In this document: piece after piece, positions 12,924 to 38,239 of the stretch
Layout: each line of letters begins with the position of its first letter
Numbering within the stretch: the stretch's first letter is position 1
Source: Alphaproteobacteria bacterium
Lineage (GTDB): Bacteria > Pseudomonadota > Alphaproteobacteria > UBA9219
Assembly: GCA_041908065.1 (NCBI GenBank)
Contig: JAYRGC010000028.1
Coordinates: forward strand, 8,206-72,205
Direction of reading: 5' to 3'
DNA: 64,000 bases
The notes under the pieces: generated by a model
Told to the model about the DNA's origin: nothing
The model's input: the letters and a program-made list of their open reading frames with translations, nothing else
Databases searched by the model: none
Translations under genes and position numbers: made by a program

Positions 12924-12997
12924 TGGGGGATCGTCTAGCGGTAGGACAACAGATTCTGACTCTGTTTACCGTGGTTCGAATCCACGTCCCCCAGCCA
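12924..12997 (+). tRNA. tRNA-Gln (anticodon CTG)
   Basis: Cloverleaf by eye: acceptor TGGGGGA/TCCCCCA, anticodon loop TTCTGAC, T-arm CGTGGTTCGAATCCACG, encoded CCA. Confidence 0.9.
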
Positions 12998-16261: not shown

Positions 16262-16337
16262 GGGGCCATAGCTCAGCTGGGAGAGCGCGACAATGGCATT
16301 GTCGAGGTCAGGGGTTCGATCCCCCTTGGCTCCACCA
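16262..16337 (+). tRNA. tRNA-Ala (anticodon GGC)
   Basis: Acceptor GGGGCCA/TGGCTCC with G3:U70, anticodon loop ATGGCAT, T-arm AGGGGTTCGATCCCCCT, encoded CCA. Confidence 0.9.
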
Positions 16338-30549: not shown

Positions 30550-32679
30550 GTGACGCTGGACAGAACAGCACCGCCGAAAATCATTCCGCTTAAGCCGCCA
30601 TCGGCTTCGGAGCTTCGCCCCCGTTTATTAAATGCCTTGCCTTCCGTTCTGCTGACGCTGTTGCCGACCGGCATTATCCGTGGCCGGAAATTCATGGTCG
30701 GGGACATCGGCGGCAATAAGGGCGACAGCCTGGTTGTTGAATTGCACGGGGACAAGGCCGGACTCTGGCATGATTTTGCCACCGGCGCTGGCGGCGATAT
30801 TTTTGACCTGTGGGCAGCGGTCAAGGGCTTCGACAAGCAAACCCAATTCCCTGCACTGTTGCAGGATATTCAAAGCCAGATCGGCGCTGGTCTGCCAGCG
30901 CAGCCCGTTTCCCGATCTTCCCCATCGACCCGCAAACTCGGAAAGCCCACCGCAAAATGGGATTACACCGATGGCGCTGGTCAGGTGATCGCATCCGTCT
31001 ATCGCTACGATCTGGCGGACGGCTCCAAGGAATTCAGGCCGTGGGATGCCGCGCGCGGGGTCATGAAAGCGCCAGAAATTCGCCCGCTTTATAACCAGCC
31101 AGGTCTGAAAACCGCCGAACAGGTTGTTCTGGTCGAAGGCGAGAAATGCGCCGAAGCCCTGATCTCGGTGGGCGTGTGCGCGACTACGGCCATGAACGGC
31201 GCGAAAGCGCCGGTGGCTAAAACGGATTGGTCGCCGCTTCAGGGCAAAAAAGTGATTATCTGGCCGGATCACGACGAGCCAGGGCTGGATTACGCACGCA
31301 ACGCGGCCAGCGCCGCCGCCCGCGCTGGCGCCATCCATGTTCACATCCTGAAAATCCCGCTCGAAAAACCGAAAGCCTGGGATGCCGCCGACGCGGTGGC
31401 TGAAGGGCTGGATATTCCGGCCATCATCCGAAGCTGGGAACGACTGGTCGCCAAGGATACGCCGCCACCACGCAAAACCCTGCCGCTATACAGCATTGCC
31501 GAATTACAGCGGGACAACAGCCCGATCCCCGACGATCTGATTTCCCCGCGCATCCTGACACCGGGCGGGTTGCTGGTATTCGGCGGTGCGCCGAAGGTGG
31601 GTAAAAGTGATTTCCTGATCACACTTCTGGCGCACATGGCGGGCGGCGCGGCATTTCTGGGCATGAGCTGCAAACGCCCGTTGCGCGTCTTTTATCTGCA
31701 AGCCGAGGTGCAATATCACTATCTGCGGGAGCGTGTGCAGCGGCTGGCATTGACCGATGCCGCAACTTTGTTCCTCAACGCCAATTTTATCGTCACGCCG
31801 CAGATTTCGATTGTGCTGGATGAAGCTGGCATTGAAGCGGTGGTGGATGCCATCCATCAGCGGTTTTCGGATGCGCCGCCCGACATCATTGCCATCGACC
31901 CGCTGCGTAACGTGTTCGACGGCGGTGGTCTGGGCGGTGAAAACGATAATGACGCGATGATGTTTTTTCTGGCGCAGCGCCTTGAAGAACTGCGCCGCCG
32001 CGTCAATCCCAGCGCCGGAATCATCCTCGCGCATCACACCCGCAAACTGTTCAAGAAAACGGCGGAAGAAGACCCGTTTCAGGCGTTAAGCGGCGCTGGT
32101 GCGCTGCGTTCCTATTACACCTCCGGCATCATGCTCCATCGGCTTGATGAAAAGCGGCCAGAGCGGTTGTTGCTTTTTGAATTACGGAACGGGCCGGAAT
32201 TGCCACCAAAGATGGTCGTGCGCGCCGCGCGGGGCTGGGAAGAAGTCGAAAACTACGCCGCGCGTCTGGCTTTCAAAGAGCAAGGCGAACGCCAGGATGC
32301 CGAACGGCTGCGAAAGACCGACACCATCATCCACCTGATTTATGAACAGGCGCAAACGGGAAAGATTTATACCGCCAACCAGTTTGCGGAAACTTTCGAG
32401 AACAAGGAGGGCTTGGGCGGCAGCCGCACCATCCGCGAACGGTTGAGCGTGCTGGCCACCAAGGGCCATGTAAAATTCTTCAAGAACGCCGACGCTTATG
32501 GCCTGCCGCTGCTGGCGCGCAGCCGCCAAGGGTATCTCTGCGTCGATGGCATGATGCTGAACACGGGCCGCCTAGTCATGCCGACGCATTACAAGGATTC
32601 ACAATCCGGCGAAATCCTGCCCGTGGTTTACACGCCCAGCCTCCCGTTTTCCGCCGCCGATGGCGAGGAGGAATCGTGA
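30550..32679 (+). CDS. bifunctional primase / RepA-DnaB-like helicase
   Basis: Toprim VVLVEGEKCAEAL ... IIWPDHDEPG. P-loop FGGAPKVGKSDF and IIAIDPL of AAA_25/RepA type. 709 aa. Confidence 0.85.
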   Translation: MTLDRTAPPKIIPLKPPSASELRPRLLNALPSVLLTLLPTGIIRGRKFMVGDIGGNKGDSLVVELHGDKAGLWHDFATGAGGDIFDLWAAVKGFDKQTQFPALLQDIQSQIGAGLPAQPVSRSSPSTRKLGKPTAKWDYTDGAGQVIASVYRYDLADGSKEFRPWDAARGVMKAPEIRPLYNQPGLKTAEQVVLVEGEKCAEALISVGVCATTAMNGAKAPVAKTDWSPLQGKKVIIWPDHDEPGLDYARNAASAAARAGAIHVHILKIPLEKPKAWDAADAVAEGLDIPAIIRSWERLVAKDTPPPRKTLPLYSIAELQRDNSPIPDDLISPRILTPGGLLVFGGAPKVGKSDFLITLLAHMAGGAAFLGMSCKRPLRVFYLQAEVQYHYLRERVQRLALTDAATLFLNANFIVTPQISIVLDEAGIEAVVDAIHQRFSDAPPDIIAIDPLRNVFDGGGLGGENDNDAMMFFLAQRLEELRRRVNPSAGIILAHHTRKLFKKTAEEDPFQALSGAGALRSYYTSGIMLHRLDEKRPERLLLFELRNGPELPPKMVVRAARGWEEVENYAARLAFKEQGERQDAERLRKTDTIIHLIYEQAQTGKIYTANQFAETFENKEGLGGSRTIRERLSVLATKGHVKFFKNADAYGLPLLARSRQGYLCVDGMMLNTGRLVMPTHYKDSQSGEILPVVYTPSLPFSAADGEEES

Positions 32680-34481: not shown

Positions 34482-34517
34482 GGCGCGACGTGCGGTTACA
34501 ATCGTCGCGCCTTTTTC
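34482..34517 (+). terminator. rho-independent terminator
   Basis: GGCGCGACG (12-nt loop) CGTCGCGCC followed by TTTTTC. Confidence 0.75.
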
Positions 34518-34617
34518 ATGTCCTCCCTAACCCTTTGAAATCTTGGGTCCCTCCTGCGCGAAAACCAATGCGGGGGGGCAAGGCCCGGCAGTTTTCTAGC
34601 GTCAGGCCCGCAAAACG

Positions 34618-34655
34618 GGTTACAGCGCGGTTACAGGTTACAGGGCGAGTTACAA
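34618..34655 (+). repeat. clustered GGTTACAG octamers upstream of the methylase genes
   Basis: GGTTACAG at 34618, 34629 and 34636. AGTTACAA at 34648. GGTTACAA in the terminator loop at 34494. Confidence 0.7.
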
Positions 34656-34672
34656 CAAAGCGGAGTTTTAGT

Positions 34673-35989
34673 TTGGATGGTTTGGCTTTTCCTGCCGCCG
34701 GATGCGATCGAGCATGCGCGGAAGGGCGAAGTCTGTTCGGAATTTCCCTCTGCGCCGGGGCTGGTGGTCTCGATCTCGGACTCCACATCGCCATCCCAGA
34801 ATATCGAACTGTGGCTTACGTCGAACGGGAAGCCTACGCAGCGGCAACTATCGTGGCGCGGATGGAAGATGCGGCCTTGGATCGCGCTCCTGTCTGGGAC
34901 GATGTTGCCACCTTCGACGGCAGACCGTGGCGCGGCCTGGTGGATATCGTGCATGGCGGCTATCCGTGCCAACCATTCTCCGTTGCCGGACGCCAGCTCG
35001 GCGACAAAGACCCACGACATCTCTGGCCGCACATCGCCCGCATCGTTTCAGAAATCCAGCCTCCCCTATGCTTCTTCGAAAACGTCAGCGGACATTTACG
35101 ACTGGGCTTCGAGCAAGTCCACGATGACCTTCGACAAATGGGTTATTGCGTTAAGGCGGGGCTGTTTACTGCGGAGGAAATCGGCGCTCCCCACCGGCGC
35201 GAACGGCTCTTCATCTTGGCTTACACCGAGGGCGCAGGAAACCAGCGAAAAGCAGGAGACCTTTGTCCGGCGCAACGGCGACCGGACGGATCAGTGCTTC
35301 GGCTCCCTGACGGCGCAAACGGCGTTGTGGCCGACCGTGACGGCCACGGACGGACTCAAGGGCGGCCCCAACAGTCGCCACGGCAGCGGCAGCCTTCACC
35401 TCCCGGCAGCGGCGGTGCAGCAGCAATGGTACACGCCGAATGTGCCGAACGGCGGCAGGAGCAACCCGAAGGATATGTCTGCGACGGGCGCGTTGCCGAA
35501 CGGCAAAAAACGCCAGGTCGGACTGGAGAACCAGGCCATCCAAATCTGGCCAACACCTATGGCCAATCCGAATTCCAATCGTCAGACGAAGCCAACGCCT
35601 TCGCAATTGAAGGGGGAGCATGGCCTCAATCTGGCGATGGTGGCGGTGACGCACGCATGGCCAACGCCGCGCGCCTGTTCGGGCAAACGCTCCAGCGGGG
35701 CGAACCGGACGGAGCTGGTGCGCTCATGGGCAACGCCGACGACGCGGGACTGGAAGGACGGCACGGCGACGGCGGATGTGGAAACGAATTGCCTGCTTGG
35801 CCGCCAAGCCCCGCGGAGCATGAACGATGGGACGGAATCCCGGCTGACCTTAAACCCGCTGTTCGTCGAATGGCTAATGGGATGGCCTATCGGGTGGACA
35901 GATTGCGCCTCTGCGGCAACGGGGTTGTCCCGCTGGTTGCAGCTTATGCATTCCGAACTCTCGCGGCTGCTGCAAACATCAACCGATGA
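34673..35989 (+). CDS. DNA (cytosine-5)-methyltransferase, ORF in the frame of 34490
   Basis: Motif I FGISLCAGAGGLDLG, IV GGYPCQPFS, VI FFENV, VIII HRRERLFILA and C-terminal motif X-like RVDRLRLCGNGVVPLVAAYAF. Possible TTG start at 34673 after GGAG. The central part shows weak third-position GC bias. Confidence 0.6.
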   Translation: MDGLAFPAAGCDRACAEGRSLFGISLCAGAGGLDLGLHIAIPEYRTVAYVEREAYAAATIVARMEDAALDRAPVWDDVATFDGRPWRGLVDIVHGGYPCQPFSVAGRQLGDKDPRHLWPHIARIVSEIQPPLCFFENVSGHLRLGFEQVHDDLRQMGYCVKAGLFTAEEIGAPHRRERLFILAYTEGAGNQRKAGDLCPAQRRPDGSVLRLPDGANGVVADRDGHGRTQGRPQQSPRQRQPSPPGSGGAAAMVHAECAERRQEQPEGYVCDGRVAERQKTPGRTGEPGHPNLANTYGQSEFQSSDEANAFAIEGGAWPQSGDGGGDARMANAARLFGQTLQRGEPDGAGALMGNADDAGLEGRHGDGGCGNELPAWPPSPAEHERWDGIPADLKPAVRRMANGMAYRVDRLRLCGNGVVPLVAAYAFRTLAAAANINR

Positions 35990-36011
35990 ACAACTCGATC
36001 TTTTTTCATGA
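35217..36011 (+). CDS. overlapping +1-frame ORF: W-x-T-P repeat region plus LNPLFVEWLMGWPIGWT (C5-MTase TRD/motif IX-like)
   Basis: WLTP, WPTV, WYTP, WPTP, WPTP and WATP repeats. Strong third-position G+C bias in this frame. Its stop overlaps the ATG of the next methylase (ATGA at 36008-36011). The ORF is open from 34677. Confidence 0.5.
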   Translation, partial: WLTPRAQETSEKQETFVRRNGDRTDQCFGSLTAQTALWPTVTATDGLKGGPNSRHGSGSLHLPAAAVQQQWYTPNVPNGGRSNPKDMSATGALPNGKKRQVGLENQAIQIWPTPMANPNSNRQTKPTPSQLKGEHGLNLAMVAVTHAWPTPRACSGKRSSGANRTELVRSWATPTTRDWKDGTATADVETNCLLGRQAPRSMNDGTESRLTLNPLFVEWLMGWPIGWTDCASAATGLSRWLQLMHSELSRLLQTSTDEQLDLFS

Positions 36012-36988
36012 GCGTCCGTATATTACAGGGAGATTGCCGCGATCTGCTGAAGACGTTGCCGGACGGCTCCGTGCATTGCTGCGTGACATCGCCGCCGTAT
36101 TTCGGGCTGCGCGATTATGGCATCGACGGCCAGATGGGATTGGAGGAAACGCCGGACGATTACGTTCAGCAGCTCGTTTCCCTCTTTGATGAAATCTGGC
36201 GAGTTCTGCGGGACGATGGAACTCTGTGGCTCAATCTCGGCGACAGCTATGCCGGGAGCGGCAAAGGCCGCAATGCTGACGGAACGCATAGCATTGGCGG
36301 AAAGCAGGATACAAATGTCGGCACCAATATCGGCAAGCTGACAAAGGCAGCGGCGCCGTGCTGCAAGCCCAAAGATTTGATCGGCATTCCTTGGCGCGTT
36401 GCATTTGCGCTGCAGAAAGCTGGCTGGTATTTGCGGAGCGACATCATCTGGCACAAGCCAAATCAGATGCCGGAGTCAGTGACGGATCGCCCGACCAAGG
36501 CGCATGAATACATTTTTTTGTTTAGCAAATCGCCGACCTACTTTTATGACGCCGCGGCGATCCGCGAAGAACAAACAGAATCCTCTCGTGTTCGCTCCCA
36601 ATATACATGGCGCGGACGCACAGATGACGGCAGCAATGGCGCGCGCGGCGGTTCGACTTTCAAGCGCACGGCCGCCAGCGGTGAAAAGATCGGCACAATC
36701 CCAGCAGACGGCAAGCGCAACAAGCGCAGCGTCTGGACGGTCGGAACGCGCCCCTTTAAGGGCGCGCATTTTGCGACTTTTCCGACGACGCTGATTGAGC
36801 CGTGCATCCTCGCCGGCTGCCCGGAAGGCGGCACGGTGCTGGATCCCTTTGGCGGTGCTGGCACCACCGGACTTGTGGCCGAGCGCCTGCGGCGCAACGC
36901 CATTCTGATTGAATTGAACCCCCGTTACGCGGCAATGGCCGAGGAACGGATTAGAACGGACGCGCCGATGCTGGCGCAACAGGATTAA
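36008..36988 (+). CDS. N4/N6 DNA methyltransferase (beta-class, SPPY motif)
   Basis: Motif IV VTSPPYFG precedes motif I VLDPFGGAGTTGLVAE. IIWHKPNQMPES. Confidence 0.85.
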   Translation: MSVRILQGDCRDLLKTLPDGSVHCCVTSPPYFGLRDYGIDGQMGLEETPDDYVQQLVSLFDEIWRVLRDDGTLWLNLGDSYAGSGKGRNADGTHSIGGKQDTNVGTNIGKLTKAAAPCCKPKDLIGIPWRVAFALQKAGWYLRSDIIWHKPNQMPESVTDRPTKAHEYIFLFSKSPTYFYDAAAIREEQTESSRVRSQYTWRGRTDDGSNGARGGSTFKRTAASGEKIGTIPADGKRNKRSVWTVGTRPFKGAHFATFPTTLIEPCILAGCPEGGTVLDPFGGAGTTGLVAERLRRNAILIELNPRYAAMAEERIRTDAPMLAQQD

Positions 36989-36991
36989 GGC

Positions 36992-38239
36992 ATGACTGAA
37001 ACAAACACACGCATGGCTGATCGCATTGAGATTTGGCCAGTGGGAAAACTTGTCCCTTACGACAAGAACCCGCGCACCCATTCGACGGAACAGGTCAATC
37101 AAATTGCGGCAAGCATCGCTGAGTTTGGCTTTTTGAATCCTATTCTCGTCGACACGACGGCAGGGATCATTGCAGGGCATGGCCGCCTCCAGGCGGCAAA
37201 ACAACTCGGCCTCGCGCAAGTCCCTGTCGTCGTTCTGGATCATCTGACGGAAGCGCAAAAACGCGCCTACGTCATCGCCGATAACAAGCTGGCGCTTAAC
37301 GCTGGCTGGGACGAAGATTTACTGCGCTCGGAAATGGCGGCGCTGGCGGCAGAGGATTTTGATTTGCCTGTCATCGGCTTTTCAGACGACGAGCTGGCGG
37401 ATTTGCTGGCCGATCCGAATGTTGTCGAAGGCCAGACGGACGAAGATGCCGTGCCGGAAGCGCCGGAGGTTCCGGTCAGCAAGCCCGGCGATCTCTGGCG
37501 GCTGGGCAACCACCTCTTGCTTTGCGGGGACAGCACCGTGCTGGCCAATGTCGAACGGGCGCTGGGCGGGATGCTGGCCGACATGGTGTTTACCGATCCG
37601 CCCTATAATGTGGATTACGGCAACGCAGCCAAGGACAAGATGCGCGGCAACAAGCGCACCATCATGAACGACAATCTGGGCGAAGGCTTCGAGAAGTTCC
37701 TTTACGATGCTTGCGTCAACATGCTGACCGTCTGCAAGGGGGCAATCTATGTTTGCATGTCCTCAAGCGAATTGCATTCCTTGCAAAAGGCTTTCACGGA
37801 CGCTGGCGGCAAATGGTCGACCTTCGTCATTTGGGCGAAAAACACCTTCACGCTGGGACGCGCGGATTATCAGCGCCAGTACGAGCCGATCCTCTACGGC
37901 TGGAAACAAGGCACGGATCATTACTGGTGCGGCGCGCGCGACCAGGGCGATGTGTGGTTCGTCAACAAGCCGGTGCGGAACGAATTGCATCCGACCATGA
38001 AGCCGGTGGAGCTGGTGGAACGTGCCATCAGCAACAGCAGCAAGAGCCGTGACATCGTGCTGGACTGTTTCGGCGGCTCCGGCACCACGCTGATCGCGTG
38101 TGAAAAGCTGAACCGCCAATGCCGGATGATCGAGCTGGATCCCAAATATGTCGATGTGATCGTCAAGCGCTGGGAAGAATTTACGGGCCGCAAGGCGGAG
38201 TTGATTTCACCTGAAGAAAAAACCGCGCCGGACGATTGA
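36992..38239 (+). CDS. ParB-like nuclease domain fused to an N6/N4 DNA methyltransferase (DPPY motif)
   Basis: ParB-N KNPRTHS ... GHGRLQAAKQLG. Motif IV FTDPPYNV and motif I VLDCFGGSGTTLIACE. Confidence 0.85.
   Translation: MTETNTRMADRIEIWPVGKLVPYDKNPRTHSTEQVNQIAASIAEFGFLNPILVDTTAGIIAGHGRLQAAKQLGLAQVPVVVLDHLTEAQKRAYVIADNKLALNAGWDEDLLRSEMAALAAEDFDLPVIGFSDDELADLLADPNVVEGQTDEDAVPEAPEVPVSKPGDLWRLGNHLLLCGDSTVLANVERALGGMLADMVFTDPPYNVDYGNAAKDKMRGNKRTIMNDNLGEGFEKFLYDACVNMLTVCKGAIYVCMSSSELHSLQKAFTDAGGKWSTFVIWAKNTFTLGRADYQRQYEPILYGWKQGTDHYWCGARDQGDVWFVNKPVRNELHPTMKPVELVERAISNSSKSRDIVLDCFGGSGTTLIACEKLNRQCRMIELDPKYVDVIVKRWEEFTGRKAELISPEEKTAPDD

Follow-up and report, generated by a model that had tools for sequence, protein, structure and literature searches.

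Layout of the locus and its motifs

We examined a cytosine-5 (C5) DNA methyltransferase locus in a stretch of 64,000 nucleotides (nt) of an alphaproteobacterial assembly (GCA_041908065.1, contig JAYRGC010000028.1, positions 8,206 to 72,205; hereafter the window). The locus holds two open reading frames (ORFs) that overlap almost throughout: the frame A ORF runs from 34490 to 35989 (499 amino acids, aa), and the frame B ORF, which lies in the +1 frame relative to A, runs from 34677 to 36011 (444 aa). Both are on the forward strand, as are the start codons, motifs and selected segments of this locus described below, and both frames are stop-free for about 1.3 kb. An earlier note on this DNA had called attention to the pair, and the overlap, its coordinates and all the motifs that the note quoted were found as it described them. 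The putative alpha product of frame A spans 34673 to 35989 (438 aa) and comprises motifs I-VIII, an unselected spacer and motif X. The putative beta product of frame B (34677 to 36011, 444 aa) opens with a conserved N-terminal peptide and an unselected spacer; six W-x-T-P modules follow, then a motif-IX-like helix and a tail.

The catalytic motifs lie in frame A: motif I FGISLCAGAGGLDLG at 34736-34780, motif IV GGYPCQPFS at 34955-34981, motif VI FFENV at 35072-35086 and motif VIII HRRERLFILA at 35192-35221. The corresponding signatures FxGxG (I), PCQ with the catalytic Cys (IV), ENV (VI) and QxRxR (VIII) follow one another in order over residues 24-190 of the 438-aa product. Pfam PF00145 matched residues 85-251 of the 499-aa ORF, over profile positions 4-167 of 324, with an expectation value (E) of 1.6e-31; numbered from the TTG start, as residues 24-190, the match had E 1.1e-31. 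Frame A also matched TIGR00675 (E 3e-25), under the curated cut-off of that model, and the PHROG family phrog_363 covers frame A end to end (E 2e-55). A Pfam search of frame B returned no domain. The earlier claim that the N-terminal catalytic motifs exist only in the first frame is supported. Further downstream, frame A carries AWPPSP (35795-35812) and motif X RVDRLRLCGNGVVPLVAAYAF (35891-35953), which includes CGNGVVP.

The region between motifs VIII and X is written in frame B. Six W-x-T-P/V units begin at 35217, 35328, 35427, 35547, 35658 and 35727, followed by LNPLFVEWLMGWPIGWT at 35850-35900, within which lies the motif-IX-like helix LNPLFVEWLMGWPIGW (35850-35897). Motifs IX and X are thus not found after the variable region within one polypeptide; the X-like motif is in A and the IX-like motif in B. 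At their meeting point, the same nucleotides encode GWTD in frame B (35892-35903) and RVDR in frame A (35891-35902), and frame B ends in ATGA (36008-36011), where its stop overlaps the ATG of the next methylase gene (PF01555); both overlaps had been noticed before and proved correct. Read in frame B, the stretch 35220-35900 has a third-codon-position G+C content of 0.78, compared with 0.57 when read in frame A; the original hand count had put these at about three quarters and about half. In the PHROGs database the two frames fall into different families, A into phrog_363 and phrog_116 and B into phrog_1008 and phrog_27243.

Selection alternates between the two frames

Codon alignments were made with 21 close relatives and 89 Rhodobacterales-type relatives, and nucleotide diversity was followed by codon phase in sliding windows. 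For the selection comparison, about 110 non-redundant related loci were used. We quantified the ratio of non-synonymous to synonymous change (dN/dS, omega) in an overlap-aware manner, setting changes that are non-synonymous in both frames against changes that are synonymous in one frame only.

The most variable phase switched along the gene, and omega switched with it. Over the first 12 or so codons of frame B, the third position of B was the most variable, marking B as the selected frame; these codons (34677-34712) encode the peptide M-x-W-L-Y/F-L-P-P and gave an omega of 1.7 for A and 0.28 for B. From 34737 to 35216, the most variable phase was the third position of A, which is the second position of B, and the catalytic half gave an omega of 0.12 for A and 0.44 for B. 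From 35217 to about 35890, the third position of B was again the most variable. Here omega was 1.2 for A and 0.20 for B in the middle of the gene, and 0.9 for A and 0.43 for B just before motif X. Finally, from 35890 to 35986 the variability returned to the third position of A, with an omega of 0.23 for A and 0.61 for B at the C-terminus (35898-35986). The same alternation appeared in the 21 close relatives, in the 89 Rhodobacterales-type relatives and in a four-member clade. The off-frame values of intermediate size (0.44 and 0.61) we ascribe to a known bias of the estimator rather than to selection. The changes that do most harm are those at the second position of the selected frame.

Overall, the selected information at this locus is a mosaic in the order A, B, A. 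The catalytic half (34736-35221) is selected in frame A, as indicated by the PF00145 match, the phase variability and the omega of 0.12; frame B across this half (34713-35216) has unselected amino acids and is never interrupted by a stop. The W-x-T-P modules and the motif-IX-like helix (35217-35897) are selected in frame B, as indicated by the phase variability, the omega of 0.20 and the third-position G+C; frame A across the modules (35222-35890) is an unselected spacer, with omega between 0.9 and 1.2, that is held open. Motif X and the C-terminus (35891-35986) are selected in frame A, by phase variability and an omega of 0.23. The earlier note had placed selection on the second frame at roughly 35.22-35.90 kb and had reasoned that the canonical motif order would need a +1 shift near 35217 and a -1 shift near 35900. 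Both the phase variability and dN/dS agree with the former, and selection changes frame at the two points named in the latter.

The unselected frames are kept free of stops

Expected stop numbers were obtained by resampling the synonymous codons of the selected frame with the codon usage of each gene. Over the catalytic half, frame B had no stop in any of 103 loci, versus 1.2-1.8 expected. Among the representatives below 88% identity, 28 of 28 lacked stops there, with a mean chance probability of 0.17 each. Over the middle, frame A was stop-free in 97 of the 103 loci versus 4.2 stops expected, at a chance probability of about 0.015 per locus. For the gene in the window, about 4.9 stops were expected in the middle of frame A, and none of 300 resamples was stop-free. 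The third frame had stops at or above expectation and was never open in the middle. Across the catalytic half, the third frame too is open for 235 codons in many Rhodobacterales-type loci of 66-70% G+C (e.g. L018, 2504-3209).

The double openness is therefore not a product of chance: stops are selected against where the amino acids of that frame vary freely. This is what one would expect if ribosomes traverse those regions in those frames.

Paired start codons behind one Shine-Dalgarno-like element

A GGAG Shine-Dalgarno-like element (34662-34665) precedes two start codons: by 7 nt a TTG (34673-34675), which is the likeliest start of alpha in frame A, and by 11 nt the ATG (34677-34679) with which beta starts in frame B. 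The TTG was chosen on start-codon conservation in relatives and on the lack of a coding signal upstream of it. The start codons of the two frames are thereby 4 nt apart, in the arrangement NTG-N-ATG, behind a single Shine-Dalgarno element. Among 87 unique relatives, the frame B start is ATG in every one, and the pairing is present in 84, with ATG (64), TTG (17) or GTG (3) placed 4 nt 5' of it; the three exceptions have an ATG or GTG 5 nt downstream of the frame B ATG instead. In relatives, a GGAG/GAGG element lies 5-9 nt before the A start. A Pseudomonas phage has GGAGG-acag-ATGAATG. The frame B ATG often directly follows an in-frame TGA, and it is therefore the first start possible in that frame. 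In a Paenibacillus phage, the frame B start lies about 180 nt into frame A and has a GGAGGTG of its own, 10 nt ahead of the ATG.

The 61 codons that precede the TTG in the longer ORF (34490-34672) show no codon-position G+C bias. All four copies of GGTTACA in the window fall at 34494-34642, within 150 nt, and three of them fall within 25 nt; an AGTTACA follows at 34649-34655, and GTTACA is also seen upstream in some relatives. The cluster is probably an operator or another regulatory repeat of the methylase operon. Because of this cluster and the missing codon-position bias, we treat 34490-34672 as a leader that is probably untranslated, with frame A starting at the TTG.

Distribution of the two-frame layout

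We collected 160 related loci from viral contigs and genomes. Nearly all of them have 390-450 open codons in both A and B, and a broken third frame. The closest genome match is a metagenome-assembled genome (MAG) of Dongiaceae (Alphaproteobacteria), 93% identical in frame B (L086). The layout recurs in phages of Burkholderia, Pseudomonas, Klebsiella, Synechococcus, Paenibacillus, Lacticaseibacillus and Gordonia. In none of about 170 loci are all motifs found in one frame; motifs I-VIII and X belong to A, whereas the variable region and the IX-like helix belong to B.

Annotation has picked one frame or the other. Burkholderia phage phi1026b has frame A annotated, as gp67, and its frame B begins MVWLFIPS. 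In Acidovorax phage Alfacinha1, both frames are open and the annotated "cytosine-specific methyltransferase" is frame B, and a D3-like Pseudomonas phage has frame B alone annotated, as hypothetical. One Synechococcus phage and one Klebsiella phage have both frames open over the whole gene, as do phi1026b, Alfacinha1, the Pseudomonas phage and low-G+C phages of Lacticaseibacillus and Paenibacillus. At low G+C chance ORFs are short, yet long nested frame B ORFs are kept in a Paenibacillus phage of 48% G+C (236 codons) and in the Lacticaseibacillus phage (201 codons). For Paenibacillus phage Shelly (gp56; L172, 1250-1954), GenBank lists the frame B ORF as "g55 internal gene" and RefSeq as "DNA methyltransferase"; two genome papers on these phages do not discuss it. 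In phi1026b (L001, 2337-4457), frame B has no stop before a downstream ParB-like gene, which yields a 706-codon ORF fused to ParB.

At the level of databases, at least 1071 frame B homologues were scored, and none among the matches listed has a Pfam domain. In an exhaustive frame B search, the number of clusters (50% identity) came to 11,289 at E <= 1e-3 and to 3,479 at the stricter E <= 1e-10.

The W-x-T-P modules

Between motifs VIII and IX, the variable region consists of modules of 25-45 residues that start with W-x-T-P and vary in number. They fall into distinct conserved types, which are gained or lost as units and occur in differing combinations among relatives. For example, the type W-x-T-P-N-V-P-N/S-G-G-R...K-x-x-V-G-L-E is common to phi1026b and Alfacinha1, and some modules are shared by enzymes that are otherwise only about 30-45% identical. 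From this behaviour we infer that the modules are recognition domains. Since they are shuffled between relatives, the enzyme may be multispecific, by analogy with the tandem target recognition domain (TRD) concept of multispecific phage methylases (PMC8936443).

Variant layouts and frame-hopping proteins

Two Gordonia phages arrange the same parts differently. In Float294 (L170, 1237-2470), frame A stops directly behind motif VIII, so that the modules, the IX-like helix and motif X are all in frame B; the locus is annotated as two methylase genes. In SchottB (L168, 1315-2385), the modules are in frame B, and motifs IX and X have returned to frame A. Common to all clades is the +1 frame of the variable region that follows motif VIII; the point of return varies.

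Five database proteins (P0141, P0157, P0158, P0163 and P0165) hop from A to B within one chain, at scattered positions. In P0141 (L166, 3001-4335, on a 380-kb contig), a one-base difference fuses motif VIII to the W-x-T-P modules, and motif X stays in another frame. These are single observations, which may reflect indels or sequencing errors, or real mutants. They resemble such errors more than a canonical ancestor. A search with the spliced model for natural single-frame homologues gave matches of 100% coverage, which turned out to be ordinary frame A products aligned across the spacer.

Two overlapping polypeptides as the best explanation

The earlier note had left four options: a pseudogene, an assembly error, translational recoding and a genuinely overprinted gene. 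The last is the best supported. We favour, with a probability of roughly 0.6, two fully overlapping polypeptides that assemble into one C5-methyltransferase. Such a pair would explain the mosaic as well as the open off-frames and the starts, whether paired or nested. One ribosome-binding site would serve the TTG at 34673 for frame A and the ATG at 34677 for frame B. The alpha chain would carry the catalytic and S-adenosylmethionine-binding motifs I-VIII, about 220 unselected codons and then motif X. The beta chain would carry the short conserved peptide, about 165 unselected codons that shadow the catalytic half, the recognition modules and the motif-IX helix. The two chains would associate non-covalently into the usual large-domain/small-domain enzyme, as was shown biochemically for M.EcoHK31I. 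Behind this proposal stand direct observations, namely the selection mosaic, the enforced openness of the off-frames, the paired starts and the wide conservation; that both proteins are made and assemble is what we infer from them. The broader statement, that the 1.3-kb messenger RNA (mRNA) is translated end to end in two frames as an ancient and widespread phage solution, with products that assemble and are possibly multispecific, we would put at even odds.

Several points weigh against this proposal. One comes from the L007 clade (L007-9, L012, L013 and L087), where 4-12 stops interrupt frame A in its middle, as many as expected under neutrality. Frame A is nevertheless still open in this clade over the catalytic half and over its last 90-150 codons, and its C-terminus keeps the wobble variability of frame A. 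Alpha therefore cannot reach motif X there, and the simple model needs internal initiation or a shift. Relatives with one frame riddled with stops and the other carrying all motifs had been named beforehand as the pattern that would count against the double frame; the L007 clade supplies the stops, in mid-frame A, and no frame with all motifs was found. The openness of frame B over the catalytic half is only moderately improbable in any one lineage (probability 0.02-0.46), and the lineages in the stop counts are not fully independent. About half of each polypeptide would be unselected sequence, which looks wasteful. Structure prediction brought no support: AlphaFold2 gave no confident fold either for the spliced A/B/A model with a mixed alignment (mean predicted local distance difference test score, pLDDT, 50.9) or for the frame B recognition region with 120 homologues (mean pLDDT 56.3). 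Pfam and PDB profiles detect neither motif IX nor motif X significantly. The two proteins and their assembly are predictions from sequence.

A pseudogene, an assembly error and a shadow ORF are contradicted by the comparative data. In a single sequence, a scrambled TRD between two frame changes is just how a pseudogene with two compensating indels, or an assembly error, would be expected to look, and four of the frame-hopping proteins (P0141, P0157, P0163 and P0165) do change frame at odd positions. But the same frames are found in the independent, 93%-identical Dongiaceae MAG, in about 160 further loci from isolates, MAGs and viral contigs, and in cultured phages of six other host genera, and purifying selection continues in each segment. 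This recurrence, in independent assemblies and in distant phages where purifying selection is still at work, disposes of both options; we consider either next to impossible. Frame A could also be the sole gene, a "DNA cytosine methyltransferase", with frame B as a compositional shadow ORF; NCBI indeed annotates frame A in most genomes, and a G+C content of 58-70% lengthens chance ORFs. This is very improbable in view of the middle of the gene, where frame B has an omega of 0.20 and wobble variability and frame A is neutral (1.2). It is frame A that holds mid-gene stops in one clade, the third frame is always broken, and long frame B ORFs persist at 48-52% G+C.

Two further explanations accept both frames and differ in how they are read. 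In double programmed frameshifting, ribosomes would start in frame A, and a +1 shift after motif VIII (about 35205-35220) and a -1 shift after GWPIGW (about 35890-35900) would yield one chain of about 435 aa with the order I-VIII, TRD, IX, X. The selection mosaic is exactly what a single spliced chain predicts; the L007 clade, with stops in mid-frame A and motif X still selected in A, fits as well, and the nucleotides of the second junction, CGGGTGGAC, are nearly invariant. However, the second junction (ATC GGG TGG ACA) has no X_XXY_YYZ heptamer, and the phi1026b type has ACG TGG TGG ACG there. The first junction has no shift signal shared across clades; in many lineages, F-I-L-A-Y of motif VIII in frame A and the first S-S-W-P-T of frame B share nucleotides. 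The number and position of the junctions differ by clade, with only one in Float294 and a second junction upstream of motif IX in SchottB. Nor does frameshifting explain two further facts, neither of which it requires: in 103 of 103 loci frame B extends without a stop up to a conserved ATG, with its own Shine-Dalgarno element, and in 97 of 103 frame A is open across about 220 codons of the middle. We know of no precedent for two opposite shifts in one gene. The lack of slippery sites and the open off-frames thus weaken the recoding option of the earlier note, which we keep as an unlikely but live alternative. A three-piece or M.AquI-like split is a little more doubtful still. Here frame A would matter up to motif VIII, frame B would give the recognition region and IX, and motif X would be made separately, by internal frame A initiation (e.g. 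at ATG 35727, "MGNAD") or by a local shift, and the read-through of frame A would be dispensable. Such a split would suit the many stops of the L007 clade (e.g. L007, 3061-3730), where the last stop stands 4 codons before the MGNAD ATG in three of four lineages; the frame A ORF that begins at MGNAD has 87 residues. It would also suit Float294, in which frame A ends after VIII and the TRD, IX and X are together in B, and M.AquI is a proven two-subunit precedent (PMC3404938). On the other hand, the middle of frame A is open in 97 of 103 loci against about 4 expected stops, which argues that read-through to X is normally used, and the Rhodobacterales-type group lacks the MGNAD ATG, its frame A products having VDDAD/G there. 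The three-piece variant may nevertheless apply within the L007 clade.

Long same-strand overlaps kept by selection are rare in bacteria and their viruses, and the clean partition seen here offers a test case for overprinting. If two overlapping polypeptides are indeed made, this locus would be among the longest selection-maintained same-strand overlaps in prokaryotic viruses, with hosts in Proteobacteria, Cyanobacteria, Firmicutes and Actinobacteria. Since gene callers choose one frame, thousands of entries would then be mis-annotated as one gene or the other. Frame B products already form families of their own, e.g. phrog_1008, labelled "DNA methyltransferase", and frame A products are deposited as complete methyltransferases though their middle third is unselected. 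In methylome work, a specificity predicted from the annotated protein would use the wrong frame, and recoding "the ORF" alone for cloning would silently destroy the partner frame.

Genomic context

The methylase gene sits in a lambda-like prophage. Upstream are a Toprim/AAA_25 primase-helicase gene (30550-32679) and two genes with domains of unknown function (DUF). Downstream are two further methylase genes, one with PF01555 at 36008-36988 and one with ParB_N and PF01555 at 36992-38239, followed by genes for terminase gpA, a lambda-family portal, an S49 protease, major capsid protein E and a tape-measure protein. Three DNA methyltransferase genes therefore stand in a row between the replication and packaging modules, and the PF01555 gene at 36008-36988 is of the N4/N6 type. 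Genes for tRNA-Gln(CTG) (12924-12997) and tRNA-Ala(GGC) (16262-16337) lie about 18-22 kb upstream of the methylase.

Comparison with known C5-methyltransferases

Compared with monomeric enzymes of the PF00145 family such as M.HhaI and M.HaeIII, the locus matches in motifs I, IV, VI and VIII, and joining the selected segments restores the order I-VIII, variable region, IX, X. Unlike in M.HhaI and M.HaeIII, no single frame holds all motifs. A profile of the spliced models matched M.HhaI strongly over motifs IV-VIII (E 7e-23). Further on, tLNPlFveaLMGWPigW...rLrlcGNGvv aligned with residues 266-307 of M.HhaI, RKLHPRECARVMGYPDSY...FGNSVV; this match is collinear and spans IX and X but lies below threshold, and we regard it as a motif-level correspondence that is not proven. 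The C-terminal half of PF00145 was not detected in any frame, in the spliced model, or in the relatives with IX and X in one frame. Sequence and profile searches of frame B against the PDB returned nothing meaningful.

The variable region may be comparable to the tandem TRDs of the multispecific Bacillus-phage C5-methyltransferases of the SPR and phi3T type, since a phage enzyme here has a variable number of modules between VIII and IX that are exchanged among distant enzymes. The modules here are defined by W-x-T-P and lie in another frame than the catalytic motifs. M.BatI, from a Bacillus anthracis prophage, is reported to have a recognition domain shorter than a single normal TRD (PMC8936443). 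It may also belong to this family, with a partner concealed in a second frame.

The locus also shares with genes of programmed frameshifting (prfB with +1, dnaX with -1, and the phage tail chaperones) the splitting of information between two frames of one mRNA. Those genes have a slippery site, a zero frame that stops soon and a second frame that is closed upstream; none of these is present here.

The closest parallels are two-chain enzymes. M.AquI of Agmenellum quadruplicatum has been proved to be a natural heterodimer whose two chains divide between motifs VIII and IX, with its ORFs in different frames (PMC3404938), a layout resembled by the distant relative in Gordonia phage Float294. Unlike in M.AquI, whose smaller subunit holds IX and X and whose variable region is split over both subunits, motif X is selected here in frame A, and the overlap is gene-wide. 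In M.EcoHK31I of E. coli HK31, which recognizes YGGCCR, the beta subunit is encoded wholly inside the alpha gene, in another frame of the same strand; motifs I-VIII and X fall to alpha and motif IX to beta, and the enzyme is active only with the two chains together (PMC2836561, PMC3404938). As a kind, the two-chain C5-methyltransferase from overlapping frames is thus already known from M.EcoHK31I and M.AquI. A literature search found no paper describing the present two-frame methylase family or a frameshifting phage cytosine methylase. Full overlap with paired starts, alternating selection, enforced openness, recognition modules in the second frame and the breadth of the family were likewise not found in the searched literature.

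The likeness to M.EcoHK31I, drawn from its published layout and motif partition, is that a second ORF on the same strand lies in another frame, with I-VIII and X in A and IX in B at the level of motifs. By contrast with its nested beta, the overlap here is complete, with both ORFs at about 440 codons and paired starts 4 nt apart. Furthermore, the literature places the TRD of M.EcoHK31I in alpha, whereas here the region between VIII and X is selected in B (0.20) and neutral in A (1.2). This suggests that the two-chain design of M.EcoHK31I is a common phage design rather than a curiosity, and that the true recognition domain is in the second frame.

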